A stretch of DNA of 60,249 nt from the NCBI GenBank assembly GCA_005804965.1, contig SYOC01000311.1, forward strand, positions 1 through 60,249, written 5' to 3'. The notes under the pieces were generated by a model. The model worked only from the letters and a program-made list of their open reading frames with translations, was not told the DNA's origin and did no database searches. Source of the DNA: Pseudomonadota bacterium (GTDB lineage: Bacteria; Desulfobacterota; Binatia; Bin18). The first letter of the stretch is position 1; each line of letters opens with the position of its first letter. A program made the translations under genes and the position numbers. This document shows positions 5,295 to 50,062 of the stretch, piece by piece.

Positions 5295-5321
5295 GAGCTG
5301 CGGAACGCTGGTTCCGCTTTT

Positions 5322-8892: not shown

Positions 8893-8983
8893 AGCCTGGA
8901 CCGTTGCCTCTTTCGTTCAGCTCGCATGCTTCTCTTTTCTGAGGGCGCTGCACCAGATGAGATTATCCTTACAGGTCGCCTCA

Positions 8984-9022
8984 GTTCAGGTACAGTTGGA
9001 AGCGGTTCAGATTCCAGTTCAG
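8984..9022 (+). promoter_or_regulatory. Three-box GGTTCAG array A (candidate operator)
   Basis: aGTTCAGGTACAg-N8-GGTTCAGATTcc-aGTTCAG. GTTCAG starts at 8984, 9005 and 9017 (offsets 21 and 12). It is intergenic, 92 nt from ATG 8892 of the hydrolase lipoprotein gene. Confidence 0.6.
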
Positions 9023-10047: not shown

Positions 10048-10063
10048 AAACACGAGGCCGTCG

Positions 10064-10886: not shown

Positions 10887-12191
10887 TTATGGCATTGTCC
10901 CTTCGCTGACACTCCAACCGTTGGCGACAATCTCAGTCTTCGCGCGCGGCGACATCTTTCCAGTGATCCACAGGGTGCGTTGCGGAGCAGCAAGAAGTTC
11001 AGAGTTTTTGGCAAAAAACGCTACGCGCTCGGTCCATGAAAGGTAGTCTACTGGCATGGGCACGATAAGGTTGCCAGCCCGGTCCCGTCCGAGGATCGGT
11101 CCAGGGGCAGTGACGGTCGCGAGCGGCTTCTTCTCATGATAGTCAGCCAGCATACGCACGGCAGTGGCGAGAAAGCGGGCCTGGGACTCGGTCGCGACAC
11201 TGCCCACTTGCCATATGACATCCTGACGCCCTTTAACATCTTTCAGACGGTCCAGATTCTCGACCACAGCCACCTGAAGACTCAAAGGCACCGCAGGATT
11301 ATGCAGGAATAAGCTCCTCTGGGCTTGTGTCACGTTCAACTCTTGGAGCTTCGTTTCGACCCGCACGATAAGATCCCCGCGCGGAGTATCCCACACTAAA
11401 TTGTCTATGGTTCTGACACCGGTGAGGAGCATTGAAGCCGGCACGGCCATTGAAATTGCGGTATTCACGCCAACCCGGCCATAAAAGGCGGCTGAGGCGA
11501 AGTCGTCCAGTTTCTTGGCTAGAATCGGATTCGAGGTGTAGGGGTCAACGCCTAACTTCTTTGCTAACGCACGGCGTTCCTGTTCGTACCCCAGCACGTC
11601 ACGAACAGCATTCGCAGCTCCGCCCTCCTCTCCTCCTGAGCCAGGGACAGCTTCAGAGCCTACGGCTCTCCCCACACCACTGCCCACGCGGTCAAAGAGT
11701 CGTCCAACGCCGCTGGGCAATCCAGTCACCGTGTCGATAGGATTCATGACCATATGACCAGTGGCCTCCAGCGGACGGACCGCCGTGGCCCCCATGGATT
11801 TCGCAAAGGTGCCGAGCTTGCTCGTGTCGTTGAGCTGCAAGATGGCTGGGACCTCAGCAAGACGGAGTTCGAGCAATTCACGGCTACGGACCTGATAGGA
11901 ACCAGCATCTTCACCAAACGTCGCTTTGTCCGCCTTGATTGTGTAGATCCCCATGATGCCGTCAGTGGGAACTTTTTCTTCAACTGTTAACCCCTTGCCT
12001 TGCAAGAGATCTTTTGCCACTAATTCCCCAACCTTGAGGGTCGGGGGGGTCTCAAAATTACCCTCTGTCTGAGCAGAGGCTATTGAGGCGATACCACACG
12101 CAAGTGCCGCGACGGTGGCGCAAGCTGCGCGCCTCCAGCGGGTGTAAACGGGATGTGGTCGAGACGGGTAAGGTAACGTGGTAGAAGACAT
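10887..12191 (-). CDS. Secreted protein, function unknown
   Basis: ORF 10887..12251 trimmed to ATG 12191, which is preceded by GGAGGAGAA. The N-terminal signal is ...AACATVAALACGIASIASAQ. No family recognised. Confidence 0.6.
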   Translation of the reverse strand: MSSTTLPYPSRPHPVYTRWRRAACATVAALACGIASIASAQTEGNFETPPTLKVGELVAKDLLQGKGLTVEEKVPTDGIMGIYTIKADKATFGEDAGSYQVRSRELLELRLAEVPAILQLNDTSKLGTFAKSMGATAVRPLEATGHMVMNPIDTVTGLPSGVGRLFDRVGSGVGRAVGSEAVPGSGGEEGGAANAVRDVLGYEQERRALAKKLGVDPYTSNPILAKKLDDFASAAFYGRVGVNTAISMAVPASMLLTGVRTIDNLVWDTPRGDLIVRVETKLQELNVTQAQRSLFLHNPAVPLSLQVAVVENLDRLKDVKGRQDVIWQVGSVATESQARFLATAVRMLADYHEKKPLATVTAPGPILGRDRAGNLIVPMPVDYLSWTERVAFFAKNSELLAAPQRTLWITGKMSPRAKTEIVANGWSVSEGTMP

Positions 12192-12258
12192 TTTCTCCTC
12201 CGTAGAGATCGTTAAAGTTGTGAGGTTTCCATTACGCCTTACGATAGGCAACCTTGTG

Positions 12259-12297
12259 GTTCAGGTACATGCGACGACGGTTCAGATCATGGTTCAG
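12259..12297 (+). promoter_or_regulatory. Three-box GGTTCAG array B (candidate operator)
   Basis: GGTTCAGGTACAt-N8-GGTTCAGATCat-GGTTCAG. GTTCAG starts at 12259, 12280 and 12292 (offsets 21 and 12). Box 1 lies 68 nt from ATG 12191. Confidence 0.6.
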
Positions 12298-12361: not shown

Positions 12362-13219
12362 TCACTCCATGCTTTCCCGAAGCTCGACTAGGACTTGGTC
12401 GTACGCGTCTAGGCGGAACAACCCGGCACGGGGATACTCGATATCGAGGATAACGTAAACAGAAATCGCGGTGATGACTGTGAATGCCAAAATATGGAGC
12501 CAGTTCCGCCGCTGGCTACTCGCCGTGCCAAACCCCGTCAGCAACGAGCACAGCAACGCAAGCACGAACAAGAGCACGAAGATGATGAATGGCGGATGGA
12601 TTCTCATAGCCATCGTCCGCGTGGTGGTAATATCAATCATCTGGTTCAGCGCCGGCAAGAGCAATCTTCCTGCTTCTGGATGATTGCCCAGCAACCGAGT
12701 TGCCGCCGTAGCCTCGGTCCAGATCTCTCTTTGAATTCTTGCCGATTGGGCGAGCACGACTTTCGCCGCTGCGATATCAGGAAGTTTTCGGTACGCTTCC
12801 AGCCGCAAATCCAAGTGCTTGCGAAGCAGTTCGCGCAGTGTCGGCTGCGCTTCAGCCGACAAGAGATCAAGCCGCAAATACGCGGTACCGATGTTATTGG
12901 CCTCCTCTGCAATCAATTGCCTGCGAACGTCCAACCGCGACGCCGCTCCAGAAAAAGTGAACGCGACGAGAAGGCCATAGAGGGCAAATACCGCTCCACT
13001 AATTGTGCCGAGCCCGGCCATAGCCCCGCCGGGGTCTCTGGCAAGGCGGCGGATTCCCAACCGACGCCCGATTTCCAAACACGCCAGCATGCCAGCAAAT
13101 AAGACGGCGACGAACGGCGGCGCTGTGATGATGCTATCCACAAATTCCTTTCTGTCTTTCGTCTCGCCGTGAGATTCTTCGCTGCGCTGCTCAGAAACAA
13201 AATCTTCGATCCAGATCAC
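12362..13219 (-). CDS. Membrane protein (DUF4239-like)
   Basis: 285-aa ORF with a GTG start. It has two N-terminal and two C-terminal TM helices around a helical soluble region. The family assignment is from memory only. Confidence 0.5.
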   Translation of the reverse strand: MIWIEDFVSEQRSEESHGETKDRKEFVDSIITAPPFVAVLFAGMLACLEIGRRLGIRRLARDPGGAMAGLGTISGAVFALYGLLVAFTFSGAASRLDVRRQLIAEEANNIGTAYLRLDLLSAEAQPTLRELLRKHLDLRLEAYRKLPDIAAAKVVLAQSARIQREIWTEATAATRLLGNHPEAGRLLLPALNQMIDITTTRTMAMRIHPPFIIFVLLFVLALLCSLLTGFGTASSQRRNWLHILAFTVITAISVYVILDIEYPRAGLFRLDAYDQVLVELRESME

Positions 13220-13427: not shown

Positions 13428-14720
13428 TCAGAATTTCTGGGTCATATTAAATGCGACGAAATGGACGAGATTAGAGGAGTAGTCTCCTTGCAAGGCACCA
13501 CCCAACGGACCCCGTTCGAGATGGGCAATCTCGCCATCCCCGGCTTGGAGAAACTCGTAGGCGAGACCAATAGTGGTGTCTTCGCTCCAGTCGTAGCGGA
13601 GCCCCGTCCCAAAGCGAAACGTCTCATCCAACGGCATGGAGGGAGTACGATGAAATTTCGACACCGGAGAACTGTCGTAGGCGAAGCCCATAGAAAGCAA
13701 CCAGGGCACACCGATGCGATATTGGGTGCCGATCGCTCCATGCCACGTGTCATGAAAATGAGCGTCTGCCGTCCCACTTTTCGACGAGGTGTCAGAACTG
13801 ATCGTCACATCGACATTGCCGAAATCTTCCCAATTTTGCCAGCCGAAATTACCCATCACTGCCCACCGGTCGGTGAGCGCATGATAGCCACTGAGCATCA
13901 CGGTTTGCGGGGCCGTCTGGTCCATTTGGATCTTTTTATTCAAGAGCCGCGATAATCCAGGCCCGGCATTGGTCACTTTGGGCTTGTCTTTGTAGGAAAA
14001 ATCAACGGGGGAACGATAGGTCAATCCAAATCGGGTCTGTGCGGTCGGCTCGATCAACACGCCAGCGTTCCCACCGAAGCCGAAGTCATCATCTTTGAAT
14101 TTGAGCCGCCCGTCGGGGAGTCGGTCCATGATATTGTTGAGGGCGGTTGTGTAAGAAAAGAGCGCATAGTTGACGCTGAACCCGGCACCGACGGACAGCC
14201 ACGGGTTAATGCGATAGGCAAACCCGGGGTTGAGCGTCGTAGTGAAAAGCTGGGTTTTCTGGATGTAATAGCGCCCCGCCCATTCCTTGCCATAGTTCAT
14301 GCCAGCACCAAATCCCGAGCCTACGCCGACCCCAAGTTTCAAGTCTGGCGAGAGACTGTGGACATAAAAAAAGCCTCCCGCCGGGATCGGAATACTGGCA
14401 ACCCCAGAGGAGGGAATGGACGTTCCCCCATTGAACCCGTCGCCACCACTCGCCGTCGTTCCACGCCCTCGGTCGAACTGGATAGAGGGGAAGATCGAAT
14501 ACAAGGTGGTGGTCAGTTCTGAACGGTCGAGGCGGGTCATCCCAGCGGGGTTGCCTATGACCGTCGAGGCATCTTGCGCCAGTGCCGCGCGACCGGCGGC
14601 CGCCGTGCCGAGGTCAGGAGTCCCTAATTCATACAGAAAGACTCCTCCGGCCCACGCCACCGAAGCCGCAAGACTGGCCCAAAAAGCAACACTGAGCATC
14701 CATACTACATGCCAAAACAT
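13428..14720 (-). CDS. Outer-membrane transport protein, OMPP1/FadL/TodX family
   Basis: AAGGAG lies before ATG 14720. After the signal peptide comes GGVFLYELGTPDLGTAAAGRAALAQDASTVIGNPAGMTRL, the typical FadL-family N-terminus. The C-terminal residue is aromatic (F). Confidence 0.85.
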   Translation of the reverse strand: MFWHVVWMLSVAFWASLAASVAWAGGVFLYELGTPDLGTAAAGRAALAQDASTVIGNPAGMTRLDRSELTTTLYSIFPSIQFDRGRGTTASGGDGFNGGTSIPSSGVASIPIPAGGFFYVHSLSPDLKLGVGVGSGFGAGMNYGKEWAGRYYIQKTQLFTTTLNPGFAYRINPWLSVGAGFSVNYALFSYTTALNNIMDRLPDGRLKFKDDDFGFGGNAGVLIEPTAQTRFGLTYRSPVDFSYKDKPKVTNAGPGLSRLLNKKIQMDQTAPQTVMLSGYHALTDRWAVMGNFGWQNWEDFGNVDVTISSDTSSKSGTADAHFHDTWHGAIGTQYRIGVPWLLSMGFAYDSSPVSKFHRTPSMPLDETFRFGTGLRYDWSEDTTIGLAYEFLQAGDGEIAHLERGPLGGALQGDYSSNLVHFVAFNMTQKF

Positions 14721-14829: not shown

Positions 14830-17193
14830 TCATTGCCGCGCCATGGCCACCCGCAGCCGCTCGTCAGGACTGATGAAGTGATCGGCGTCATCTTTGCCGA
14901 GGTCGATTTGCACCCAATTAACTTTGCCGGTGAAGACACTGCTGTGACGGTCATAATCCGCACTGACCGGCGTGCCAGTCTCGTGGCCGATATCCGTGGT
15001 CTCGTCGGCGGAAAAGAGCAGCGGTACGGTGCGCTCGACGCGCCCCTCGCCGACTTTGCTGCCGTCGTAGTACAGCGCCACGTTACCGCCCTTGGCCAAC
15101 CCGCCGCCGTCATAGGCAAACTCCATGCGCACTTGATGCTTGCCAGCGGAGATGGCTTGGCTTGCCTCCGTCGTGAAGGTTTCGAGGCCGAAGAAGTTGT
15201 AGGCGAACTTGGCTTTTCCGCCCTTGGTGTACAGACTGAGGCCGCCAAACTTCCCGCCCTGAGCGATGATGACACCCTCGGCACCTTTGCTGGGGACCTC
15301 CACTTCAGCCGTGATCGAAAAGGAACGATTCTTCATCACCACGACACTATTCTCAGTCAGCCGCCCCATGCCGCCGAACAGCAGTTGCGAGTTGCCCTTA
15401 ATGAGCTGTGGTCGCCCGGCCACAGCAGGATTGAAACGTTCGACTCTACGGTCATCCAGCGGAATGACGTTGTACTTGGTCGCTTCAATCAACCACAGCC
15501 GCTGCAATTCGTGCAACTTCTCAGGCATTTCTTTGGAGAGATCGTGCGCCTGGGTCCAGTCCTTGCTGCCGTCGTACAGTTCCCAGACATCATCATCAAA
15601 AGCTGGTAATTTTTCGATGACCCACGGCGTGGAGTGCCGGGTCACCGCGCTCCAGCCTTTATAGTAGATGCCGCGATTGCAGAACATCTCGAAATATTGC
15701 AAGTCGTGCCGCTCTGGAGCAGTGGCATCGTCGAAGCTGTAGAGCATGCTCGTGCCCTCCAGCGGGCTTTGTTGCACGCTGTTGACGATGGTCGGCTGTG
15801 GAATACCGGCAGCTTCCAGTATGGTCGGGGCGATATCAATCACGTGACAGAACTGGCTGCGGATCTCTCCTTTCGCCTTAATACCTAATGGCCAATGCAC
15901 GACCGTGCCATTGCGCGTACCGCCCCAGTGTGACGCCACCTGCTTGGTCCATTGATAGGGAGTATCCATCGCATGCGCCCAACCCACGGCATAGTGGTTG
16001 AATGAGTCCGGGCCGCCAAAGTCGTCGATACGTGCAGTCAAAAATTCCGGCGTCTCCACACCGGTGATGCCGTTTAACATCAGCCCTTCGTTAAACGAGC
16101 CGTTGGGCGTACCTTCCGCCGAGGAACCGTTGTCGCCGACAATGACGTAGATCAGCGTATCGTCGAGAATTTCGAGATCCTTCAGCGTATCAATGAGTCG
16201 GCCCACGTGATGATCGGTGTGTTCGAGAAATCCAGCGTAGCACTCCATCTGCCGCGCCAGCACCGGTTTCATTTTCGGGTCAACCTCGTCCCACGCTTGA
16301 ATCTCTTTGGGCCGCTGCGTTAACTCAGCATTCGCCGGAATGACGCCAAGCGCCTTCTGCCGCGCAAAAATCTCCTCGCGCAGCTTGTCCCAGCCTTGGT
16401 CGAATTGACCTTTGTACTTATCCGCCCACTCTTTCGGCACGTGATGGGGCGCATGACACGCACCCGGCGCGAAGTAGACAAAGAACGGTTTGTCCGCCAT
16501 CAGTGCCTTCTGCTGACGCACGTAGGCAATTGCTTTGTCCGTCATATCTTCGGTGAAGTGGTAGCCTTCCTGAGCGGTCTTCGGTGGTTCGAGTGGCGTC
16601 GTGCCTTCGTAAATGGCCGGATCATACTGATTGGTCTCACCACCGATGAACCCGTAAAAATGTTCGAAGCCGCCGCCGCCGGTCGGCCACTGGTTGAACG
16701 GCCCTAACGGGCTGGTTTCCCAAACCGGCACTTCATGACACTTGCCAAACTGCGCGGTCGAATAGCCGTTTAACTTGAGCGTCATCGCCACAGGCGCTTT
16801 GTTCTTAGGCAGAACTGACGTGTAGCCGGGTGCCGAGGTTGCGATCTCACAGACCCCACCCATATTGACGGAATGGTGATTCCGCCCGGTGAGCAACGCC
16901 TGCCGTGTCGGTGAACACAGAGCTGTGGTGTGGAAGCGATTATACTTCAGCCCGTTCGCTGCCAGCTTCTCGAAGGTTGGCGTCTGGCATGGCCCACCAA
17001 AGGCGCTGGAGGAAGCAAAGCCAACATCGTCAAGCAACACGATCAGCACGTTCGGTGCGCCTTTGGGCGGACGTAACGCTTCAATTGGCGGGAATTTCGT
17101 GTCTGGGTCCTTGGCATCATATGTGACCAAGCCTGTGTGCTGCCGATCCGGAATCGGCAGAATCGCGCGTTGAATGTGGTCTTGATTACTCAT
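14830..17193 (-). CDS. Arylsulfatase (Cys-type, formylglycine-dependent sulfatase family)
   Basis: NVLIVLLDDVGF and the sulfatase signature CSPTRQALLTGRNHH are present. The start is moved to ATG 17193 (GAGGAG 9 nt upstream) rather than 17223. No signal peptide is visible. Confidence 0.9.
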   Translation of the reverse strand: MSNQDHIQRAILPIPDRQHTGLVTYDAKDPDTKFPPIEALRPPKGAPNVLIVLLDDVGFASSSAFGGPCQTPTFEKLAANGLKYNRFHTTALCSPTRQALLTGRNHHSVNMGGVCEIATSAPGYTSVLPKNKAPVAMTLKLNGYSTAQFGKCHEVPVWETSPLGPFNQWPTGGGGFEHFYGFIGGETNQYDPAIYEGTTPLEPPKTAQEGYHFTEDMTDKAIAYVRQQKALMADKPFFVYFAPGACHAPHHVPKEWADKYKGQFDQGWDKLREEIFARQKALGVIPANAELTQRPKEIQAWDEVDPKMKPVLARQMECYAGFLEHTDHHVGRLIDTLKDLEILDDTLIYVIVGDNGSSAEGTPNGSFNEGLMLNGITGVETPEFLTARIDDFGGPDSFNHYAVGWAHAMDTPYQWTKQVASHWGGTRNGTVVHWPLGIKAKGEIRSQFCHVIDIAPTILEAAGIPQPTIVNSVQQSPLEGTSMLYSFDDATAPERHDLQYFEMFCNRGIYYKGWSAVTRHSTPWVIEKLPAFDDDVWELYDGSKDWTQAHDLSKEMPEKLHELQRLWLIEATKYNVIPLDDRRVERFNPAVAGRPQLIKGNSQLLFGGMGRLTENSVVVMKNRSFSITAEVEVPSKGAEGVIIAQGGKFGGLSLYTKGGKAKFAYNFFGLETFTTEASQAISAGKHQVRMEFAYDGGGLAKGGNVALYYDGSKVGEGRVERTVPLLFSADETTDIGHETGTPVSADYDRHSSVFTGKVNWVQIDLGKDDADHFISPDERLRVAMARQ

Positions 17194-17258
17194 GGCTATG
17201 TACTCCTCTCTGTAATTCGTCATTCACGCAATGCTGAGTATTCATGGAAAGCTGAGGC

Positions 17259-17654
17259 TCAATGGCGAAAGAGCACGACGATCAACACTAGTAAGCCGAG
17301 CAGTGAAATCAAACCCGCGAGTATCGACGCTATCGAACGGGGGAGAGGCGGGTAGAGTGACCGCAGATGCTGGAGACTCGTGACATGCTGTATCGTGCCG
17401 GCAAGTAACGACACTAAGCCGAAGGTGATCATCAGCAAGGCAAACCCGCGCGGCGTGACCAAGGGGTCAACGTGCTCAGCACCTCGCGTCTCGAATTGAA
17501 AAAACTTGTACACGCTGAAACCAAACGTAATCAGCGACGTCGCCGTCCGCACCCACGCCATCATTGTGTTTTCGTAGGCAAGGCGGGTGCGCTCATACGC
17601 GAGCCTCGTAGCGATGTCGATCTCTCGTGTTTCAGTGTCAGTCGAACTTGCCAT
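17259..17654 (-). CDS. DUF202 (YidH-like) membrane protein
   Basis: LAYERTRLAYENTMMAWVRTATSLITFGFSVYKF is the DUF202 motif. There are three TM helices. Confidence 0.75.
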   Translation of the reverse strand: MASSTDTETREIDIATRLAYERTRLAYENTMMAWVRTATSLITFGFSVYKFFQFETRGAEHVDPLVTPRGFALLMITFGLVSLLAGTIQHVTSLQHLRSLYPPLPRSIASILAGLISLLGLLVLIVVLFRH

Positions 17655-17708
17655 GTTGCGGTATTCCTTTGAGCAGACGCCGCTTGGGACGGTCTTCGGA
17701 AACGGCCT

Positions 17709-18107
17709 CTACGATCTTTCGATCTCCACCCCGCTGACGTGTGCGAAGCGCGTCACAAGGCCGCGGAGCAAAAGGTAAGGGAGAAGAGCCAAGACCGTGG
17801 CGGTAATGAGCGTCTCTAGCGGGTAGAACCAGCGCACAGTGATGAACTGGTAGATGATGTCGAGGACGGTGGCCATGATGAACACCTTCCCAACATCCTT
17901 CCACCCTTGCTGGAGCAAGTCGCGTCGGTGTGCCGGATTGGTGAAGATAGTCCAGAGGTAAGGCGGACGTCCGGTTCGTGCATCTTTCAGTCCGGCGCGA
18001 ATCGCGAGGAGCGTCGCCATCGTTGGCTGGAGGAACAGTCGCAGGGTGAGAGGTCCATCGGCACGACCAAGGAGGTTTTCCCAAATGCGTATCAGCGTTT
18101 CTTCCAT
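17709..18107 (-). CDS. Small membrane protein, unknown function
   Basis: 132-aa ORF with two C-terminal TM helices (KVFIMATVLDIIYQFI, LITATVLALLPYLLL). Preferred over the overlapping 177-aa Arg/Pro-rich frame. Confidence 0.5.
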   Translation of the reverse strand: MEETLIRIWENLLGRADGPLTLRLFLQPTMATLLAIRAGLKDARTGRPPYLWTIFTNPAHRRDLLQQGWKDVGKVFIMATVLDIIYQFITVRWFYPLETLITATVLALLPYLLLRGLVTRFAHVSGVEIERS

Positions 18108-18157
18108 TCCTTCCGCTCTCCGTTCCGTTTGTGTTCAACCATGGCGCACCTGAGTGT

Positions 18158-18565
18158 CTATTTGCCCGCATTATTGGCGCGGGCTTCTGCCTGTGCTTGC
18201 CACGGCCAGCAGCCTTCGAGTTCGACGACTAAGGACCAGCTCAGGAAGGTGCGGATGAGCACCAGGAGGCCGAGCACCGTAACATTATGCAGCATGGGTT
18301 CGAGCGCGACCGTTCTGACCAAATCAGCGGCCACGAGCAGATCAAGCCCCAGCAAAATGCCTTTGCTGAGTTGATGCTTGTAGCTCTCATAGGCACCGGC
18401 CTCATCGAGGTGAAAGAGATACCGGACCGTCCCGCGCGTGACCGCGAGAATGACCACCGCAGCCACGATGACCACCACAGCCAACACCTCAATGCCGAGG
18501 GCCATCCACTCGATGCCATAGCGAATCATTGCTACCAGTTCACCGCCAGCGTTTGCCTGCGTCAT
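18158..18565 (-). CDS. DUF1622 membrane protein
   Basis: GILLGLDLLVAADLVRTVALEP resembles the DUF1622 core motif. There are four predicted TM helices. Confidence 0.65.
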   Translation of the reverse strand: MTQANAGGELVAMIRYGIEWMALGIEVLAVVVIVAAVVILAVTRGTVRYLFHLDEAGAYESYKHQLSKGILLGLDLLVAADLVRTVALEPMLHNVTVLGLLVLIRTFLSWSLVVELEGCWPWQAQAEARANNAGK

Positions 18566-18578: not shown

Positions 18579-19244
18579 TCATTCCTGCGCCAGCGGCAAA
18601 AACGCCAGAGCCATCGTCGTGACCGTCAGCATGGCTGCCGCCAAGACGAGTAATACGATGCGCAGCCTCGGTTCCTCGAACACAGCGGCGATGCCACCCA
18701 GGAACAGCACGATGCCGTACAAAACCGTCAACAACAGGTAGGTATCCGAAATCTCGTCGGCATCTCGCGCCTCGGCGAAATTCTTCGTTTCGTCCATCTG
18801 CAACTGGCGTGCTTCCTTCCCCGCAGCCAGGACGTATGCGTCCATGCTAAAGGGTGTGAGCGGAGCCGAAGGGTTGTGCCAGGGTTTCGTGGCTAACCAC
18901 GCTTCGACAGCGACGCGCATCTCCGGACGGAAGCGTTGAAAGAGAAATTCCGCCAGTTGATCGTTTTTTTCGATGATCGCGCTGACATAACGCTCAAAGA
19001 GGACGGCATCGAGGCTGCGCAGTTGGTTCGAGTACAAGTCCTTACCTGCGGCCTGCCGACCAGCAGCGTTGGCTTCGGCAATGCGGAAGGTCTGGATACC
19101 CTCCCACAGCGCGGCTTGATATGCACTCCAGGCGGAGGCCAACGTGGCCACCCCCAAAAGAACAGCGGCAAGGACATCGAACCAACCTGCCCAAGAATCG
19201 ACCTCGTAGCGAAATGCATCCGCTCTGCTCTCGGTTTCCGTCAT
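18579..19244 (-). CDS. Membrane protein, unknown function (DUF4337-like layout)
   Basis: 221-aa ORF with one N-terminal TM, a long helical region and two C-terminal TMs. The family is uncertain. Confidence 0.5.
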   Translation of the reverse strand: MTETESRADAFRYEVDSWAGWFDVLAAVLLGVATLASAWSAYQAALWEGIQTFRIAEANAAGRQAAGKDLYSNQLRSLDAVLFERYVSAIIEKNDQLAEFLFQRFRPEMRVAVEAWLATKPWHNPSAPLTPFSMDAYVLAAGKEARQLQMDETKNFAEARDADEISDTYLLLTVLYGIVLFLGGIAAVFEEPRLRIVLLVLAAAMLTVTTMALAFLPLAQE

Positions 19245-19310: not shown

Positions 19311-19568
19311 TCAGTCCTCGTCCACTTGTTGTTCAGCCAGTACTTGAGCAATGAAGTTCAGCAGCTCCTCAAGTGACTGAAAATGCAGGACTTGGGCGGA
19401 CAGCAAGTGTTCAACTCGCCCCTGCCACTGCCCTCGCTCGGGCTGAGCGGCGGCATGCAGCTGCAGAACAAACCCACGATTAGCTGGGAGAGAAGGCTTT
19501 TGTTTCGGTGACATTCCGTTTTTCGTTCTATCGACAGAAAAATTGAGCGACGCCCGTTTGACACTCAC
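19311..19568 (-). CDS. Small hypothetical protein (85 aa from GTG 19568, or 67 aa from ATG 19514)
   Basis: ...RGFVLQLHAAAQPERGQWQGRVEHLLSAQVLHFQSLEELLNFIAQVL. It is the first gene of the long minus-strand gene string and is divergent from the regulator gene. Coding status is not proven. Confidence 0.45.
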   Translation of the reverse strand: MSVKRASLNFSVDRTKNGMSPKQKPSLPANRGFVLQLHAAAQPERGQWQGRVEHLLSAQVLHFQSLEELLNFIAQVLAEQQVDED

Positions 19569-19620
19569 AACCGTTTAGGGGCGTTGTCGGTTCTGCGCCA
19601 AAACAGTAAGGTAGCCTGCG

Positions 19621-19669
19621 GTTCAGGTACAGAAGAGAAACGTAAATTACGGTTCAGATTCCGGTTCAG
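19621..19669 (+). promoter_or_regulatory. Three-box GGTTCAG array C (candidate operator, divergent intergenic region)
   Basis: GGTTCAGGTACAg-N18-GGTTCAGATTcc-GGTTCAG. GTTCAG starts at 19621, 19652 and 19664 (offsets 31 and 12, one extra helical turn). It ends 23 nt before ATG 19692 of the regulator gene. Confidence 0.6.
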
Positions 19670-19691: not shown

Positions 19692-22600
19692 ATGGCACAA
19701 AAAATTGGCAACCCCGCTTACGAGACAACTCAGACGGAGCTGCGCTTTGGCCCGTTTCGTTTGGAAGGCAGCAAGCGGCTGTGGCGTGGAGATCACGCAG
19801 TGGAGATCCGACCGCGTCCCTTAGCCATGTTGCGCTATTTAGCCGAACGCCCAGGCCAACTCATCGCCAAGAACGAGTTGCTCAAGCAGTTGTGGCCAGG
19901 CATCTACGTGTCGGACACTGTCGTCAAAGTGTGTACACGTGAGATCCGCCAAGCGCTGCAGGATGACGTGGCGACACCGCAGTTTATCGAAACTGCCGGG
20001 ACGCGGGGGTATCGGTTCATTGCCCCTCTCATCACAGCCACCCCGGTTGCAAGCCCACAGACTGAGCCACCCCCAAGCCCCCCTCAGTCTCTCATCCCCA
20101 ATTTCACCGGACGAGAAGAGGAACTCGCGCAGCTCCAGGACTGGTACGACCAAATGCAACAGGGTGCGCAGCAGATCGTTTTCGTTTCTGGCGAGGCGGG
20201 CATCGGGAAAACCACGCTCGTGGAACGTTTTTTAGCGCAAGTGTCAGGGCAAGACGCTATTCGTATCGGGCGTGGTCATTGCCTCGAACAGCAAGAGCGA
20301 GGAGAAGCCTACTTGCCGGTCTTGCAAGCCTTGCAACAATTATGTCGGACGGCCGATGGGGAGGCGGTCATCGCAGTGCTGCGTCGCTATGCGCCGCTGT
20401 GGTTGCTCCAGCTCTCGGGCGTTATTGAGGCGGATGAGAGGGAAACGTTGCAGCGACAACTGCAAGGCAGCAACCCGCAACGCATGTTACGCGAGTTCGG
20501 AGAAGCCATCGCCCATTTAACGTCTGAGCAGGTATTGTTCCTTGTTTTCGAGGACTTGCACTGGAGTGATGTTGCGACCCTAGAACTCTTGTCATATCTA
20601 GGTCAGCGACGAGAGCAGACCCGACTCATGGTGCTCAGCACCTATCGGCCAGCAGAAACGGTAGCCAGCCAACATCCGCTCCGCAGAATCGAACAGGAAA
20701 TGATTGGGCGGGGGCAGTGCCATGAACTGGCGCTCGAACTGTGGACTGAAGCAGAAGTCGAGCGCTACTTGACTTCCCGTTTGTCGGCAAGCCCAGTCGT
20801 GGCCGCCTTGTGGCCAGTGATTCATCGTTGTACCGATGGCAATGCGCTGTTTGTCGCACATTTTCTGGACTATCTGCTGCACCAGAAGCTGCTAGTCGCC
20901 ACTCAAGACGGCTGGGAACTCCGCCTGGAGCCTACGGCCATCGAAGAACTCATCCCTGACCACGTGCAACGGCTCATTACCAAGCAGATTGAAGGGCTCA
21001 GCAAAGACGCGCAGCAGGCGCTGGAAGTGGCCAGTATGGTCGGGAGGACCTTCACCGCGTATGAGGCGGCAGCCGTACTCGGGAGCGACCCGGAAACACT
21101 CGAAGTGCTTTACGAGGAACTCGAAAATCAAGAGCGACTGATCAACATACAAGAAATTGCCGAATGGCCCAATGGAACGATGGCCGTGCGCTATCGCTTT
21201 CGCCATGCTTTGCATCGCCATGTTGTGTATCAGAGGATTGGACCGGCACGACGAATGCGCTGGCACCGGCAATTGGGCGAGCACTTGAGCAATGTTTATG
21301 GAGAACACGCCCCGGAGGTGGCCAGCGCAATCGCCTTCCACTTCGAACGGGGGCGAGATTATCCACACGCCATCCGCTATTACCAGCAGGCCGGGGAAAG
21401 TGCGTTACGCCGCAGTGCTCATGTCGAGGCGGCACAACACCTCACGCAAGGTTTGGCACTGTTGTCCACCTTGCCGGAGACCTCGGAACGGATGCGGCAA
21501 GAACTCGCCTTGCGGATTCCGCTTCATGTCGCCTTATTGGCCAGTCATGGGCTGTCGGCCCCTGAACTAGAAGAAAACCTGGAACGCGCACAGTCATTGT
21601 GCAACATCTTGGATGACCTCCCCCAATTTACCACAGTTTTGATCGGTCTAGCACGGCTGTATATCACTCGTTCAGATCGCCTCAAAGCCGAAGCAGCCAT
21701 CGAGCAAGAACAGCACTTGCTCCTACGGCTCACTGATCCAGCGATCTTGGTAAAACTCCATACCCAGCTAGGCGTGCTGGAGCTGGTGCGTGGTGCGCAC
21801 CGCCGGGTGCAAGAGCACCACGCGCAAGTCTTTGCGCTCTATGACGCCACGGCGCAGAGCACCCTACGGTTTTCCTTCGGCATAGATCCGCACGCGCTTG
21901 CGTTGGTGATGTCGGGCGTGAGTCTGTGGCTCCGAGGCTGGCCGGAGCAAGCCTGGAGTGCTGCTGAGCGGGGCATTGCCCGCGCCCAGGAGATTGCTCA
22001 CCCGTTTTCTTTGGCGAATGTACTCTCCTTTGCTGTGTGGGTGCGGCAGTTCCGCAGCGAACTCGATCAAGCCTGGAGCCTAACGCAAACGCTGGTGACA
22101 TTGGAGCGCGAGTACGGCTTTGCGACGAATGTCTCGCGAACAGCCATAGAACAAGGCTGTGTTTTGGTGCGACGCGGTGAACTGACCGAAGGCATTCAGT
22201 TGCTTGTCGAAGGCATCAATCAGCATCGAGCTACGGGCGCACAGATCATGCTGCCGTACTCCCTCTCTTTCCTCGCCGAAGCCTACGGACAGCAAGGACA
22301 GTTTGCCGAAGGGCTCGCCACGATTAATGAAGCCATCCATCTAACAGAAACGAGCTTCGACCGCCTGTGGGCGGCGGAGGTGCATCGCATCAAAGGCGAA
22401 TTGACTCTGCAACAGGCCTGCTTTCAAGAAAGTCAAAAGGCAAAGGGCAAAAGTCAAAAACTGCCAACCGCCAATCTCCAGGCAGAAGCTGAGACGTGTT
22501 TTCATAAGGCCGTTGAGATTGCTCGGCAACAAGAAGCGAAATCGCTGGAATTGCGCGCGGCGATGAGCCTCGCACGGCTGTGGCGGACCCAGGGCAAAAC

Positions 22601-22706
22601 CACCGACGCGAAGCAGGTGTTGGCGGACATCTACGGCTGGTTTACCGAGGGATTCGATACGGCGGATTTGCAACAGGCAAGGACGCTGCTCACTGAACTC
22701 TCCTAA
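19692..22706 (+). CDS. Transcriptional regulator: OmpR/PhoB-type winged-helix DNA-binding domain + P-loop NTPase + TPR/helical repeats (STAND-type)
   Basis: The N-terminus LRFGPFRLE...RPLAMLRYLAERPGQLIAKNELLKQLWPGIYVSDTVVKVCTREIRQAL...TAGTRGYRF matches a trans_reg_C winged helix. Walker A is VSGEAGIGKTTL and Walker B-like is LVFEDLHWSD. A ~600-aa helical/TPR-like C-terminus follows. Confidence 0.85.
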   Translation: MAQKIGNPAYETTQTELRFGPFRLEGSKRLWRGDHAVEIRPRPLAMLRYLAERPGQLIAKNELLKQLWPGIYVSDTVVKVCTREIRQALQDDVATPQFIETAGTRGYRFIAPLITATPVASPQTEPPPSPPQSLIPNFTGREEELAQLQDWYDQMQQGAQQIVFVSGEAGIGKTTLVERFLAQVSGQDAIRIGRGHCLEQQERGEAYLPVLQALQQLCRTADGEAVIAVLRRYAPLWLLQLSGVIEADERETLQRQLQGSNPQRMLREFGEAIAHLTSEQVLFLVFEDLHWSDVATLELLSYLGQRREQTRLMVLSTYRPAETVASQHPLRRIEQEMIGRGQCHELALELWTEAEVERYLTSRLSASPVVAALWPVIHRCTDGNALFVAHFLDYLLHQKLLVATQDGWELRLEPTAIEELIPDHVQRLITKQIEGLSKDAQQALEVASMVGRTFTAYEAAAVLGSDPETLEVLYEELENQERLINIQEIAEWPNGTMAVRYRFRHALHRHVVYQRIGPARRMRWHRQLGEHLSNVYGEHAPEVASAIAFHFERGRDYPHAIRYYQQAGESALRRSAHVEAAQHLTQGLALLSTLPETSERMRQELALRIPLHVALLASHGLSAPELEENLERAQSLCNILDDLPQFTTVLIGLARLYITRSDRLKAEAAIEQEQHLLLRLTDPAILVKLHTQLGVLELVRGAHRRVQEHHAQVFALYDATAQSTLRFSFGIDPHALALVMSGVSLWLRGWPEQAWSAAERGIARAQEIAHPFSLANVLSFAVWVRQFRSELDQAWSLTQTLVTLEREYGFATNVSRTAIEQGCVLVRRGELTEGIQLLVEGINQHRATGAQIMLPYSLSFLAEAYGQQGQFAEGLATINEAIHLTETSFDRLWAAEVHRIKGELTLQQACFQESQKAKGKSQKLPTANLQAEAETCFHKAVEIARQQEAKSLELRAAMSLARLWRTQGKTTDAKQVLADIYGWFTEGFDTADLQQARTLLTELS

Positions 22707-22801: not shown

Positions 22802-22868
22802 CGAGGGTAGACATACGGTGTCGTTCAGGCACGGAAAATTGCCCTCAGAAAAGAAAGGAGATCCTATC

Positions 22869-23594
22869 ATGCAAAAGCTTACATCACTGAGACTTGCAGG
22901 CGCACTCATCGCTTGCCTCAACTGCGGCAGTGCTCTTGCCGCCGATAAACCGGAGTATTCAGGGTTTCTCGCGGACTATTCGCAGTTACAGTCCCGTGCT
23001 GACTCCAACATGCTCTACAATTACATCTACGAAAAACCTGGGACCGATTTTGCCCAGTACAGTAAATTTCTCATTGAGTCCGTGACCGTTTTCCCGAGTA
23101 AAGAGGCTAACTTTAAGGGCATTAACGCCAACGACCTGACGCTCTTGCAGAAGTACTTCCACGATGCCGTGGCTAAAGCCCTGACCGAGAATAACGGCTA
23201 CCAAGTCGTCGAGGAACCCGGCCCTGGCACGGTCCGTATTCGCGCAGCGTTTACCGATTTGGTGCCAGTGAATGCAGCGATGAATACCGCGACAACCATC
23301 GTACCACAGATGCGCATAGTGTCCGGAATCATCGGCGCGGCCACTAGTTCCAACCTCTTTGTCGGGCAAATCGGCATGGAGCTCGAGTTTCTTGACGCAC
23401 AAAGCAACGAACGCATCGCGGCAGCGGTGACCAAGCAAGCGGGAAAGAAGTATATTCCGCTGACCGACAGAAAATTTGACCCGACCAGCACTTGGGGACA
23501 GGTCGAACAAGAAATGGACTATCTAGCAAAGAAATTGCGCACCCGGGTCGATCAGTTGCACGGGAAAGCCCCTGCTGCCGAGAAGGCCAACTAG
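22869..23594 (+). CDS. DUF3313-like lipoprotein
   Basis: ORF 22818..23594 trimmed to ATG 22869, which is preceded by AAAGGAGA. Lipobox ACLN|CGS. YSGFLADYSQLQ resembles the DUF3313 N-terminal motif. Confidence 0.6.
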   Translation: MQKLTSLRLAGALIACLNCGSALAADKPEYSGFLADYSQLQSRADSNMLYNYIYEKPGTDFAQYSKFLIESVTVFPSKEANFKGINANDLTLLQKYFHDAVAKALTENNGYQVVEEPGPGTVRIRAAFTDLVPVNAAMNTATTIVPQMRIVSGIIGAATSSNLFVGQIGMELEFLDAQSNERIAAAVTKQAGKKYIPLTDRKFDPTSTWGQVEQEMDYLAKKLRTRVDQLHGKAPAAEKAN

Positions 23595-23731: not shown

Positions 23732-24664
23732 TCAGTCAAACCCGATTCGTTCATCAAGCAAATAGAGCGGACGCTGTTTCACCTCTTCGTACACGCGCCC
23801 GAGGTACTCACCAATAATGCCCAGCGCGACCAATTGCACGCCACCTAAAAAAAGCACGGCGACCATGAGCGAGGTCCACCCCGGCACTGTCTGCGTGGTA
23901 AAAAGCCGCAAGATGATCGCATACACGGCATAGAGAAAACTGAGTACGGAAATACTCACCCCCAGATACGTAGCAACTTGCAACGGCGCGAACGAGAACG
24001 CCGTCAAGCCGTCGAGTGCGAATTTGAGCATTTTGCGCAGCGGATATTTCGTCTCTCCAGCCATGCGTTCTTTGCGAGTGTAGGTCACGCCGGTCTGCCG
24101 GTACCCGACCCAGCTCACAAGCCCACGCACGAAGCGGCTGCGCTCACGCGCGGATTGCAGCGCATCTACCGCCCGCCGACTCATGAGGCGAAAGTCGCCA
24201 GTATCAAGAGGAATATCCACTTGCGTCATAGCTCGTAGCAGACGATAGAATACCGCTGCCGTCCCTAGCTTGAAGGCACTCTCACCTTCCCGTTTATCGC
24301 GCACAGCATAGACGACGTCGTAGCCTTCTCGCCATTTATCGAGCAGTTGTGGCAATACCTCTGGCGGGTCTTGCAAATCCGCATCCATCACTATGACGGC
24401 TGCGCCTGTAGCTTGATCAAGGCCACAGGTAATCGCTGTCTGATGGCCGAAATTACGCGAGAGGCTCACCACTTTCACGTGAGAATCATCAGTATGGAGA
24501 CGCTTCAGCGAGGCAAGGCTCCCATCGCGACTGCCATCGTTCACGAACACGATCTCATACGCCTCGCCATACGCGCCCAGCACTTCGCTCAGACGCTGAT
24601 ATAAGATGGGCAGGATTTGCTCTTCATTGAAGACGGGAATAACAACAGAAACAGTCGGTGGCAC
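23732..24664 (-). CDS. GT2 polyprenyl-phosphate glycosyltransferase (ArnC / Dpm1-like)
   Basis: VSVVIPVFNEEQILPILYQRL...YEIVFVNDGSRDGS...VMDADLQDPPE plus two C-terminal TM helices is the typical ArnC/GtrB architecture. Confidence 0.85.
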   Translation of the reverse strand: MPPTVSVVIPVFNEEQILPILYQRLSEVLGAYGEAYEIVFVNDGSRDGSLASLKRLHTDDSHVKVVSLSRNFGHQTAITCGLDQATGAAVIVMDADLQDPPEVLPQLLDKWREGYDVVYAVRDKREGESAFKLGTAAVFYRLLRAMTQVDIPLDTGDFRLMSRRAVDALQSARERSRFVRGLVSWVGYRQTGVTYTRKERMAGETKYPLRKMLKFALDGLTAFSFAPLQVATYLGVSISVLSFLYAVYAIILRLFTTQTVPGWTSLMVAVLFLGGVQLVALGIIGEYLGRVYEEVKQRPLYLLDERIGFD

Positions 24665-24706
24665 TCAGGTTCTCCCTTTCGATTACAAACGTCTCAGGGC
24701 ATCCCG

Positions 24707-26878
24707 TTAAGAGGAGGGTTCACGCGCAGGAGCAGAAGGAGCAATGGCACCGATGGCTGCGCGCGACCCACCTTCATCGAGCGTCACTTCCGCAGGCGCA
24801 TTGGTAATGGCGAGACGAGTGCCGGAGTCACGAAAAAAAACGCCGACGCGCAGGGCAAGGCTTTCCTCAGAGAGATGTTTCGGCAGAAAGTAGAGATCCC
24901 GGTCTTTCAGCAGCGCACCTGGTAGCCACCACGAGGTCGGGTAGCGTCCCCGCGCCGGCGCATGATCCCAGTTCGTACGCGTCTGCGGCTCTGCATCCGC
25001 CGTAACGTGGACGAACATATGATAATCCTTCGTCAACGTCTTCAGCGCTCGCCAATAATACGTCACCACAAAGGCATGCCCTCGTGTCAGCGTCCCTTTG
25101 TCTTCCAGGTCGTAGCCAACTAACTCCAGCTCATCACCAAAACGCACCGGCGTGGAAAAGCGGAAAGACGGCTCGTCGGGAGCCGTTAGGTCGACTTGCC
25201 GCTCGTACAAGATCGCTTCCGAGCCATCCGGTAAAGGAAAACGCGGCGTTACTTCGGCAAAGCCGGATTCAGGAGAACGTAAAAAAGCGAGGATCTCGTC
25301 GTTGTAGGTCGTCAGCCAGCGCTCGCCCGGGCTGCCCGTCTTCACTACCGCAAAATCCACGCCTTGTAGGTGGATGCGATATTCCGGCCCTTCGGAAAAA
25401 CGCGGATCGCCAGGATGTGTCACACCGACCGGAAGCTGCAGCAAGGTCGTGAAATAGGTAAAGGTGCTGGCATTCAACAACGGAGCATCGGGGATGATGC
25501 CGAGCACCGCCGGGCGGGCCATCGTCCGTCTATCGTCGAGTCCCAGCGACCCTCCTACGACACGTTGCAAAATCTCCGCTATCGGCCAGTGTTCTTGTTG
25601 GGGCAAGGCGAAATAGGGCGCAGATTCGGGAGACCCTTGCCGGAGGAGAGCAAGACGCGGTAACGCTTCATGGAGCGAGATCTCAATCAGACCGGGCAAA
25701 GCCCGCCACCCGTACGAGGCGAGCCAAAATTGCATGAGGAGTAACACCACGACTCCACCGCCAGCAAAGCTTCGCCATTTCGACTTGGGGACAAAAGCGC
25801 TGCCCCAGGCGGCAACCACTGCCATAGCCGGCAGAACAGGCGTGATGTTTTTCTGATCTTGCGAGGGCAAGGTCGAGAAAAAAAGATAGGCAACAGCAAT
25901 CGAAACGAACAACAGGACAAAGCCGTGGAGTGCACTAGAGGGAGCGGCGATTTTCTGCCTAGCGAATGCCATTCGGTTATGCCACAGCAAGGCCACACCT
26001 GCGAGAAACAGCCCCAGCCCAACGAGCGTCAAATGCCCATTCACAAACCCAATGCCATACGACGCCAACGCCTGCCACGTGAATGGGTTCGAAGGACCAT
26101 AGCCGACCGCTTCCTCACCGTAGGCAGCGCTGAGCGAACGCGCGATAAGCGGCTTGAGATTGAGCAAATACCATGGTGCTGCCACCAGCGCCGCAATGCC
26201 CAGGGAAGGCACGAGATAGCGTCCGAGTCGTGGCGGCCCAGACTTTGAGCGTCCGAGTATCAAACCTCCGCCCTTCCATATCGCCCATACACTCACGCTC
26301 AAAGGTCCGATTAAAAAAATCGGAAAGAACGCACGACACAACCACCCCAACCCCAAGGTCACGCCCAACGCGACTGAGGGCCATTTGTGAGCAAACCCTT
26401 CCGTCCGCACTAACCAGTACAGCGCAGCGGCAACCAACGCCGTGTTCCAAAAATCGAAGAGAAATATCCGTGAGAGCCCGAATGCCGCCGGATAGGTTGC
26501 GACGAAAAAAGCGGCAAGAACCCCAGTGGCCGGTGAACGCAGCCGTGCACCCAAACCATAAGTAGCCAATACCAGGATGACAAATGCAATCAGGTTGATC
26601 GACAAAGCCGCGCTTGCCGATTTGCCGAAGAGGAAATACGTCGGCACGGCTAGGAGCGGCAAGAATGGTGGTCGCGAGCGATCAACCGACAGCACGGAGG
26701 TGAAGAACCCGGAGAGTCCGTCCTCAAAAAGTGCCTCGTGATATTTGAAGCTGGAAGTGAGATACGCAGCGTCGTCCCAGCGTGGCGGACGAGTGTCAAT
26801 ATGGAGCCAGAGCAGATTAGCAATGAGGCTCCCGGCAATAATCATCCCCAACCACAAGCGGGGCGAACGTACATTCAC
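24707..26878 (-). CDS. ArnT/PMT-like (GT39/GT83-type) membrane glycosyltransferase with a ~300-aa C-terminal soluble extension
   Basis: The N-terminus LWLHIDTRPPRWDDAAYL is followed by more than 10 TM helices, giving a PMT_2-like layout. It lies adjacent to the ArnC-like gene. Confidence 0.7.
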   Translation of the reverse strand: MNVRSPRLWLGMIIAGSLIANLLWLHIDTRPPRWDDAAYLTSSFKYHEALFEDGLSGFFTSVLSVDRSRPPFLPLLAVPTYFLFGKSASAALSINLIAFVILVLATYGLGARLRSPATGVLAAFFVATYPAAFGLSRIFLFDFWNTALVAAALYWLVRTEGFAHKWPSVALGVTLGLGWLCRAFFPIFLIGPLSVSVWAIWKGGGLILGRSKSGPPRLGRYLVPSLGIAALVAAPWYLLNLKPLIARSLSAAYGEEAVGYGPSNPFTWQALASYGIGFVNGHLTLVGLGLFLAGVALLWHNRMAFARQKIAAPSSALHGFVLLFVSIAVAYLFFSTLPSQDQKNITPVLPAMAVVAAWGSAFVPKSKWRSFAGGGVVVLLLMQFWLASYGWRALPGLIEISLHEALPRLALLRQGSPESAPYFALPQQEHWPIAEILQRVVGGSLGLDDRRTMARPAVLGIIPDAPLLNASTFTYFTTLLQLPVGVTHPGDPRFSEGPEYRIHLQGVDFAVVKTGSPGERWLTTYNDEILAFLRSPESGFAEVTPRFPLPDGSEAILYERQVDLTAPDEPSFRFSTPVRFGDELELVGYDLEDKGTLTRGHAFVVTYYWRALKTLTKDYHMFVHVTADAEPQTRTNWDHAPARGRYPTSWWLPGALLKDRDLYFLPKHLSEESLALRVGVFFRDSGTRLAITNAPAEVTLDEGGSRAAIGAIAPSAPAREPSS

Positions 26879-26897
26879 GTGCGATACCCGCCAGTCC

Positions 26898-29210: not shown

Positions 29211-29243
29211 GTGATTTCTTTCGGTGGCTTTCAGTAGCTATAC

Positions 29244-29270
29244 GGCACTGCTGGACCAGCCAGCAGTGCC
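29244..29270 (-). other. Strong intercistronic hairpin (11-bp stem, 5-nt loop)
   Basis: ggcactgctgg-accag-ccagcagtgcc lies between the two paralogous GT genes. No U-tract follows it on the transcribed strand. Confidence 0.4.
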
Positions 29271-29292
29271 GCCCAATAGCCAAATCGGCAAA

Positions 29293-34903: not shown

Positions 34904-34932
34904 TGCTTCGTTCTCGGGCTTCGATCCTCTTT

Positions 34933-50042: not shown

Positions 50043-50062
50043 CCGTCACGCCTCCCCTCGCC

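Follow-up and report, generated by a model that had tools for sequence, protein, structure and literature searches.

A stretch of 60,249 nucleotides (nt) of contig SYOC01000311.1 (assembly GCA_005804965.1), from an uncultured Pseudomonadota bacterium placed by GTDB in the Binatia of the Desulfobacterota, was analysed over its whole length, called here the window, and it contains exactly four three-box GGTTCAG arrays, all of them at most 11 kb from gene 19692-22706, which encodes a winged-helix regulator. Very probably, to judge from sequence, these arrays, A to D, are the binding sites of this winged-helix protein, encoded beside array C, and they mark a local regulon. They look like activator sites overlapping the -35 region rather than like repressor operators, and some sixteen genes around them, for the cell envelope and for sulfatases, appear to be activated from these four sites. 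This reading is carried by the fixed distance between the arrays and a -10-like hexamer, by the regulator genes that stand beside such arrays in other loci, and by boxes that change together with the recognition helix of the regulator.

The four arrays

The arrays were scored with an nhmmer profile trained on 17 arrays from other loci only, those of the window not being included, and are located as follows, with the E value of each in that profile.

8983-9022, + strand as the boxes are written (- strand in gene sense): array A, 33-bp span, E 1.4e-13
12258-12297, + strand as the boxes are written (- strand in gene sense): array B, 33-bp span, with boxes that begin at 12258, 12279 and 12291 (+ strand numbering), E 1.2e-11
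19620-19669, + strand as the boxes are written (- strand in the sense of the divergent operon): array C, 43-bp span class, E 2.6e-11
22802-22763, - strand as the boxes are written (+ strand in gene sense): array D, 33-bp span, E 2.6e-13

The offsets between box starts are 21+12 nt in A, B and D and 31+12 nt in C, just as an earlier note on this DNA, made from the letters alone, had claimed for four arrays of shared geometry; the arrays themselves are where that note put them, and only its starts for A, B and D fell one base inside box 1. Boxes 1 and 3 of array A read AGTTCAG. In the sense of the gene, the common layout is CTGAACC-N5-CTGAACC-N14-CTGAACC, with N24 in the case of array C, which reads CTGAACC(19669-19663)-N5-CTGAACC(19657-19651)-N24-CTGAACC(19626-19620) towards the divergent operon, while array D reads CCGAACC-N5-CTGAACC-N14-CTGAACC on the + strand and lies 57 nt past the stop codon of the regulator. 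The sequence likeness among the four is limited to the boxes and to an extension of box 1, and the flanks are unrelated.

The window has 16 copies of the GGTTCAG heptamer where shuffled sequences give 7.6 +/- 2.8, and the whole-array pattern gave no match at all in 100 shuffles. A search of the 60 kb for further near-perfect heptamer pairs at helical spacing found none besides arrays A to D, and in the profile the next window match has E = 0.45, which bears out the earlier statement that the 60 kb hold no further full array. The exclusivity of the arrays extends over 66.9 kb of the contig, that is, the window, whose left end is the end of the contig of 82,982 nt, plus the 6.6 kb past its right end, where no additional array was found. 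It was also correct that the arrays are always intergenic, as the map of open reading frames (ORFs) places all four between genes, except that box 3 of array A reaches 4 nt into ORF 9019-10158 at its stop codon. Measured between the first G of box 1 and the A of the ATG, the distance is 67 nt in both B and D, and therefore the equality of these two distances noticed earlier holds, with 67 nt in place of the 68 nt then given; the starts at 12191 and 8892 are used also by an independent gene caller.

The longer geometry of array C, described in the earlier note as one helical turn more, recurs across loci and is therefore a genuine class: among the loci compared (L001 and so on), the 43-bp span is found as 31+12 in array C of the window, in L001 and in L139/L166, and with a fourth box, as 19+12+12, in L137, L143, L156, L160 and L175. 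In L139, extra boxes extend to the regulator ATG. The four-box arrays of L137, L143 and L175 precede genes of FadL/TodX-like outer-membrane proteins, with an ATG supported by a Shine-Dalgarno (SD) sequence 57-58 nt past box 1.

Predicted promoter geometry

Arrays A and B sit between tandem minus-strand genes, and array D sits between the regulator stop codon and a plus-strand gene, so that each can serve only the gene from which the earlier note saw it pointing away. That apparent direction was an artefact of the strand chosen to write the box; in gene sense, box 1 lies upstream of a -10-like hexamer. Exactly 11 nt after box 1, a hexamer TAnnnT is present in 25 of 28 pooled non-redundant arrays and in three of the four window arrays; with a background frequency of 0.0053 per position, three out of four corresponds to P = 6e-7. 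The hexamers of the window are the following.

19603-19608, - strand: -10-like hexamer TACTGT, 11 nt downstream of array C box 1, identical in L001
12241-12246, - strand: -10-like hexamer TATCGT, 11 nt downstream of array B box 1
22814-22819, + strand: -10-like hexamer TACGGT, 11 nt downstream of array D box 1
8966-8971, - strand: deviant hexamer TAAGGA, without the final T, standing at +11 of array A, the canonical place

An alternative hexamer for array A, TAATCT, lies at 8960-8965. The isolated GGTTCAG heptamers of the window (e.g., 13425 and 36166) were considered as single-box promoters and rejected, as TAnnnT stands at +11 in none of the seven. A promoter scan near A to D found no full sigma-70 consensus promoter at any array, and where a -35 would stand, 17 bp before the -10, the hexamer is TATTCC or TGTACC, with no -35 consensus. 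If TAnnnT is set as -12 to -7, box 1 covers about -30 to -24, while box 2 covers -51 to -45 and box 3 covers -63 to -57, and thus the site abuts the predicted -10 at a fixed distance where a consensus -35 is absent, as in class II-type activation at pho-box or afs-box sites. Since box 1 keeps 11 nt to a conserved -10-like hexamer, the geometry is that expected of an activator site and not of a repressor operator.

The regulator protein

The protein encoded next to array C combines a winged helix-turn-helix (wHTH) domain of the OmpR type with a STAND NTPase and tetratricopeptide repeats (TPR).

19692-22706, + strand: regulator gene, 1004 aa, wHTH + STAND NTPase + TPR
19797-20018 (residues 36-109): OmpR-type wHTH (Trans_reg_C, PF00486), 51.1 bits vs cut-off 26.2, E 1.5e-13
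19914-19958 (residues 75-89): predicted recognition helix DTVVKVCTREIRQAL
Residues 138-314: AAA_16 STAND NTPase, E 8.8e-27
20190-20213 (residues 167-174): Walker A, GEAGIGKT
20538-20555 (residues 283-288): Walker B, FLVFED

The C-terminus gives TPR matches, besides weak matches to NB-ARC and nSTAND3, and the protein thus has the P-loop NOD with Walker A and B and the repeat-type sensor that define a STAND NTPase. The "TOMM kinase/cyclase fusion" model, TIGR03903, resembles the protein in its ATPase-TPR portion, which aligns with residues 138-962, and homologues of the regulator carry precomputed TPR_MalT matches. Sequence matches in the PDB cover the wHTH only, the best being the DNA-binding domains of CadC (5ju7, E 2.9e-8), ToxR, PhoB and OmpR, and the NCBIfam models of CadC and HilA also match this domain.

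No receiver (Response_reg) domain was matched, and response-regulator models align only with residues ~10-112, far below their cut-offs. The BTAD domain (PF03704) has no match at E <= 0.01, and only ~28 residues separate the end of the wHTH (109) from the start of AAA_16 (138). A GerE/LuxR HTH found no match in Pfam or NCBIfam, and no membrane segment was seen, the maximal 19-residue Kyte-Doolittle hydropathy being 1.3 against the usual threshold of 1.6. Lacking a receiver, a BTAD, a LuxR HTH and a hydrophobic segment, the protein is neither a response regulator nor a SARP, a LAL or a ToxR-like protein; by its domain content, it is a soluble one-component wHTH-STAND-TPR protein. The earlier description of an OmpR/PhoB-type protein is therefore right for the DNA-binding domain and does not hold for a response regulator, given that the wHTH is N-terminal and fused to a STAND ATPase and TPR.

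Arrays and regulators in other loci

A pattern scan of metagenomes yielded 53 loci, 27 with canonical arrays and 26 with unrelated 12-nt coding repeats, the latter being used as controls. A regulator homologue stands beside the array in 11 of the 27 canonical loci and in none of the 26 controls (Fisher p = 2.7e-4). These 12-nt repeats are long tandem runs of (GTTCAGATACAG)n on many unrelated contigs, such as L129-L136, L140, L142, L144, L147, L151, L155, L157-L159, L164, L165 and L169-L174; they are false positives of the pattern, apparently coding, and were used only as negative controls. When genome contigs were scanned with GGTTCAG-N14-24-GGTTCAG-N5-GGTTCAG, the matches listed included Gly-Ser-type coding repeats and no true array.

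In the opposite direction, starting from the protein, three closer homologue loci chosen by protein identity (86%, 59% and 55%) all have an array, and in seven remoter homologues (41-49% identity) the regulator gene is likewise preceded, at a short distance, by direct repeats, with boxes specific to each lineage. The earlier note had proposed to check whether arrays are conserved upstream of orthologous genes; for the regulator gene, a direct-repeat array is present at all 11 homologue loci fetched (41-86% identity). The boxes of the seven remoter loci are the following.

L177: GGTTCAA x4, period 12 nt
L178: GTTCAG/A, period 12 nt
L179: GGTAAGG, period 11 nt
L180: CTGTAAT, period 11 nt
L181: CGTTAR, period 9-12 nt
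L182: GGATAAGCTT x4, period 10 nt
L183: GGTTAGG / CGGTTTG, period about 10-11 nt

The predicted recognition helix is near-constant across the GGTTCAG/A lineages, and its KVC becomes KVA in L179 and TTC in L180. The 11-nt TAnnnT grammar is kept in six of eight arrays of lineages whose boxes are diverged or different. It is seen as TTGAACC..TATAGT in L177, twice in L178, as CCTTACC..TACTAT in L179 and as CCTAACC..TATAGT in L183; L181 nearly fits it with TATAAC, and L180 and L182 offer no clear example. Boxes and recognition helices seem to co-diversify, through GGTTCAG, GGTAAGG, CCTAACC-type boxes and GGATAAGCTT. The proposal that the array is a candidate site of the neighbouring winged-helix protein is supported by both the linkage (11/27 vs 0/26) and the co-variation of box and helix, and these together are the strongest computational evidence that the regulator reads the boxes.

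In L182, the gene divergent from the regulator (3226-5883, - strand) encodes an 885-aa AAA_16 protein with weak PKD-like matches, which takes the place held in other lineages by a small 64-67-aa protein.

Probable autoregulation

Box 3 of array C ends 22 nt before the regulator ATG, a gap that is 22 nt in six loci and 9-20 nt in other lineages. At such a distance, the promoter or the leader of the regulator must overlap the array, which makes feedback likely, and the occupancy of array C probably feeds back on the expression of the regulator itself. The earlier note had suggested autoregulation through TAAATT (19643-19648) as a possible -10 of the regulator gene. Autoregulation remains likely by the position of array C, but not by way of this hexamer, which is not conserved: it reads TAAATC in the 86%-identical orthologue of L001 and is missing from the 39-nt arrays, the common ones, which sit at the same 22 nt from the regulator ATG yet lack TAAATT. 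As a speculation, the 39-nt arrays could hold a weak regulator promoter, with TTCAGG of box 1 as -35, CAGATT of box 2 as -10 and a 17-bp spacer, a layout that does not fit array C.

Proposed mechanism and alternative explanations

From the arrays, their exclusivity, their fixed geometry to the -10, their co-occurrence with the regulator and the boxes proper to each lineage, all of which are read in the sequence, we infer binding, activation, oligomerisation and the positions of the transcription start sites. We consider it probable, with some reserve, that the arrays are cooperative sites of the regulator, each being the upstream half of an activator-dependent sigma-70-type promoter, and that the four form a local regulon. 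In such a mechanism, the TPR/NOD module would sense a signal, leading to nucleotide-dependent multimerisation of the regulator, after which three or four wHTH domains would occupy the phased boxes and the promoter-proximal one would replace the missing -35 contact and recruit RNA polymerase; the distal boxes would lie one helical turn further upstream in arrays of the 43-bp class, to which array C and the four-box arrays belong. The promoter of array C would then drive the genes of a 67-aa protein, of membrane proteins, of a sulfatase and of a FadL porin, and probably that of a bestrophin-like protein as well; that of array B, those of a 434-aa protein, a DUF4410 protein and an Lnb_N protein; that of array A, those of a 675-aa hydrolase-like protein and a DUF2092 protein; and that of array D, a DUF3313 gene.

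Several points weigh against this proposal. The distribution of the arrays in the organism was measured over the 66.9 kb of contig. PhoB and SARP sites have a spacing of 11/22 bp, against 12 and 21 bp between the boxes here, and their protein-DNA geometry cannot simply be carried over, and the multi-box arrays only suggest that the regulator multimerises. The assignment of the -10 is purely computational, and the hexamer of array A is deviant (TAAGGA). The metagenome pattern itself fixed flanking bases (NNANA after box 1 and AT after box 2), and therefore conservation at these bases is not independent evidence. Lastly, 16 of the 27 canonical-array contigs have no regulator homologue; many of them are short, and some of their arrays may be distant targets.

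The main rival explanation is that the arrays are repressor operators, which block otherwise constitutive promoters until a signal frees the regulator. The boxes overlap the -35 and the spacer region, where repressors act too, and array C covers the 5' region of the regulator's own gene, which fits negative autoregulation. Nevertheless, neither the hexamers TATTCC and TGTACC nor the promoter scan provide a -35 or a consensus promoter; besides, the strict distance from box to -10, kept across lineages with different boxes, fits an activator in contact with RNA polymerase and not steric blocking, and the architectural relatives SARP/AfsR, PimR, PhoB, MalT, CadC and HilA are activators at such sites. 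We therefore regard repression as unlikely. The contigs that carry arrays and no regulator homologue would also agree with a different factor, e.g., an unlinked OmpR-family response regulator, binding the arrays and having the wHTH-STAND gene as just one of its targets. This is quite improbable in our opinion, as an array lies immediately upstream of the regulator family at every homologue locus examined and the box sequence shifts with the lineage and the recognition helix of the regulator, which is hard to square with an unlinked factor.

We give the least credence to the arrays being promoters of an extracytoplasmic function (ECF)-type sigma factor, or else a repeat, dispersed or mobile, that plays no part in regulation. 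TGAACC does resemble the -35 motifs of ECF promoters, and a G often precedes the TA, such that some -10 regions read CGTA; however, TGAACC stands 9-12 nt from CGTA/TAnnnT and not at the 16-17 nt that separate -35 and -10 in ECF promoters, and the sigma-factor reading was rejected on this spacing; besides, three or four phased copies are no feature of sigma promoters. As for a repeat of the repetitive extragenic palindromic (REP) or miniature inverted-repeat transposable element (MITE) kind, the 66.9 kb contain no more than four copies, each of them at a predicted promoter upstream of a gene and in one orientation, with unrelated flanks, no terminal inverted repeats at the arrays and no Rfam matches.

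The predicted regulon

The orientation and geometry of array C towards the small ORF 19514..19311 are the same as those of A, B and D towards their genes, and this points to the divergent operon starting with that ORF as the primary target of array C. The predicted targets of the four arrays are listed in order of operon.

19311-19514, - strand: conserved 67-aa protein, first gene of the predicted C operon
18579-19244, - strand: 221-aa membrane protein, predicted C operon
18158-18565, - strand: DUF1622, predicted C operon
17638-18171, - strand: 177-aa protein, predicted C operon
17259-17654, - strand: DUF202, predicted C operon
14830-17223, - strand: sulfatase, 797 aa, predicted C operon
13428-14720, - strand: FadL/TodX porin, predicted C operon, after a 109-nt gap
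12362-13219, - strand: bestrophin-like protein, predicted C operon, after a 208-nt gap
10887-12191, - strand: 434-aa protein, no family assigned, first gene of the predicted B operon
10064-10837, - strand: DUF4410 lipoprotein, predicted B operon
9019-10047, - strand: Lnb_N protein, predicted B operon
6865-8892, - strand: 675-aa protein with alpha/beta-hydrolase C-terminus, first gene of the predicted A operon
6006-6782, - strand: DUF2092, predicted A operon
5322-5993, - strand: 223-aa ORF, possibly in the predicted A operon
22869-23594, + strand: DUF3313 lipoprotein, 241 aa, predicted target of array D, SD GGAG 9 nt before the ATG

The genes of the C unit follow one another with short gaps or overlaps up to the sulfatase, and L001 shows the same order of genes; the gaps of 109 and 208 nt make co-transcription of the FadL/TodX porin and the bestrophin-like gene less certain. 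At other loci, the genes that follow arrays encode FadL-like porins (in the case of four-box arrays), a SulP transporter, a fragment of a sulfatase and lipoproteins, and sulfatases cluster beside the regulator in L001 and L177. From this content, we can only infer a role of the regulon in handling sulfated hydrophobic substrates at the envelope.

An exact 14-mer, GCCCTCAGAAAAGA, has only two copies in the window, at 8933-8946 (- strand) and 22841-22854 (+ strand), both in the predicted 5' leaders of A and D, 36-38 nt past box 1, and none in the leaders of B and C; a second regulator could bind there, or the two leaders could have a leader or ribosome-binding element in common. Starting 5 nt past it, a 12-codon upstream ORF, MRAERKRQRSRL, lies at 8890-8928 (- strand), and it ends in a TGA that shares bases (ATGA) with the start codon, at 8892, of the 675-aa ORF, which has no obvious SD of its own, making translational coupling between the two possible.

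The rest of the window, with glycosyltransferases, a restriction-modification-like pair and type II secretion genes, has no arrays by the profile. The regulon is flanked by a large glycosyltransferase cluster (23732-36000, - strand), which includes a PMT_2 protein and two GT2/GT4 fusion proteins, of 770 and 972 aa, and by a type II secretion/pilus-like cluster (44694-51780, - strand), with secretin, T2SS F and PilM/N. On the - strand, the gene of a C-5 cytosine DNA methylase (38226-39482) overlaps an ORF of 350 aa that matches no family (37177-38229), and the two are possibly a restriction-modification pair; a tRNA-Gly(CCC) is located at 54941-55016.

The small protein divergent from the regulator

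The operon divergent from the regulator begins with a conserved gene, that of the small protein, and the protein, of 64-67 aa, is kept beside the regulator with 58-72% identity in 13 loci or more, some of them from lineages that have other boxes. Its consensus reads PSLPAKRAFVVQxHADAKVEQGQWQGRVEHVVSYQATRFQSLEELLAFIVKVL. The copies at other loci include the following.

L002: 906-1100
L003: 9628-9828
L177: 9529-9708 and 894-1073 (two copies)
L181: 3425-3604
L183: 5594-5776

In L182, the copy adjoins a sigma-54 activator instead. In L126 (12100-12424), which has a canonical array, an adjacent regulator and a similar leader, tblastn finds no copy, and the small gene may have been lost or frameshifted there. 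The 67-aa protein has no Pfam or NCBIfam match, and its AlphaFold2 model is poor and unreliable, with a predicted local distance difference test (pLDDT) score of 64. An RNA element was also considered and discarded, there being no Rfam match and no better folding of the small-gene leader than of shuffled sequences (z = +0.87).

Relationship to known regulators

Literature searches on the wHTH-STAND-TPR architecture or on the GGTTCAG motif found only work on SARPs and MalT. The closest analogues would be SARP-LAL/AfsR, PhoB and MalT, which the present system would resemble in its mode of action, and the feature that defines the domain architecture of each is missing here, to judge by the domain matches. 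In the case of PhoB, direct repeats located some 10 bp before the -10 take the place of the -35, and activation proceeds via sigma region 4. The regulator described here shares the DNA-binding fold of PhoB, but it has no receiver or phosphorylation control, its DNA-binding domain is N-terminal, and it has three or four boxes at 12/21 instead of two 11-bp repeats. It resembles CadC, ToxR and HilA in its N-terminal wHTH without a receiver, and these give the closest sequence matches of the DNA-binding domain; in contrast with the regulator here, which has no hydrophobic segment, CadC and ToxR are membrane-anchored, and HilA has no ATPase.

MalT multimerises on inducer and ATP and binds its promoter boxes cooperatively (PMC4381067). 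With MalT, the regulator shares the STAND NOD, the superhelical-repeat sensor and several boxes per promoter, whereas MalT carries a C-terminal LuxR-type HTH in place of the N-terminal OmpR-type wHTH, and the sequence and layout of its boxes are unrelated. The sites of SARPs are direct repeats with a period of 11 or 22 bp, of which the 3' one lies at 8 bp from the -10; in the case of AfsR (wHTH-BTAD-NOD-TPR), the box overlaps a poor -35, AfsR holds sigma region 4, and the prime target is the afsS promoter (PMC10936776). PimR, a SARP-LAL regulator, binds three heptamers with 4-bp spacers (PMC5930380). The likeness to SARP-LAL/AfsR thus comprises an N-terminal OmpR-type wHTH followed by a P-loop NOD/AAA_16 ATPase and TPR-type repeats, heptameric direct repeats phased by whole helical turns (three of them in the main PimR operator), and, as in AfsR and the classical SARPs, a 3' repeat that abuts the -10 and overlaps a poor -35. 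The gene afsS is adjacent to afsR and encodes a small protein, and as a target it parallels the gene of the 67-aa protein. The differences are that the regulator here has no BTAD, that its repeat period is 12 and 21 bp (or 19/31) as against 11 and 22 bp, that its proximal heptamer is 11 bp and not 8 bp from the -10, that the host is an uncultured diderm (FadL porin, secretin) and not an actinomycete, and that the targets are envelope and sulfatase genes and not antibiotic clusters.

To our knowledge, large STAND-type transcription factors are abundant in environmental bacteria, and outside MalT and the actinomycete SARPs almost none has a known site or regulon. Among 8,000 candidates examined, more than 2,500 are homologues of the regulator at E <= 1e-20. 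Whether the regulator and its arrays represent an uncharacterised but widespread class, of BTAD-less wHTH-STAND-TPR activators in uncultured diderms with a portable grammar of three to five lineage-specific heptamers, 11 nt and a -10, and with a regulator gene always next to an array of its own, we judge to be evenly balanced. By analogy with AfsS for AfsR, the divergent 64-67-aa protein, paired with the regulator in one large subfamily, may be its co-factor or relay.

In summary, what emerges is no new principle but a testable, predicted cis-regulatory code for a large uncharacterised regulator family, which gains a predicted binding motif, a promoter grammar across lineages and a predicted regulon, and with them regulon prediction in metagenome-assembled genomes becomes possible from sequence alone. 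The predicted regulon (sulfatase, FadL-type porin and several lipoproteins or periplasmic proteins with no assigned function, DUF3313, DUF4410, DUF2092 and Lnb_N) hints at the uptake and hydrolysis of sulfated hydrophobic compounds. If boxes and recognition helices do co-diversify, the family would be a natural set of orthogonal, signal-gated activator/promoter pairs, as well as an independent, non-actinobacterial route to SARP-type sigma-adaptation.

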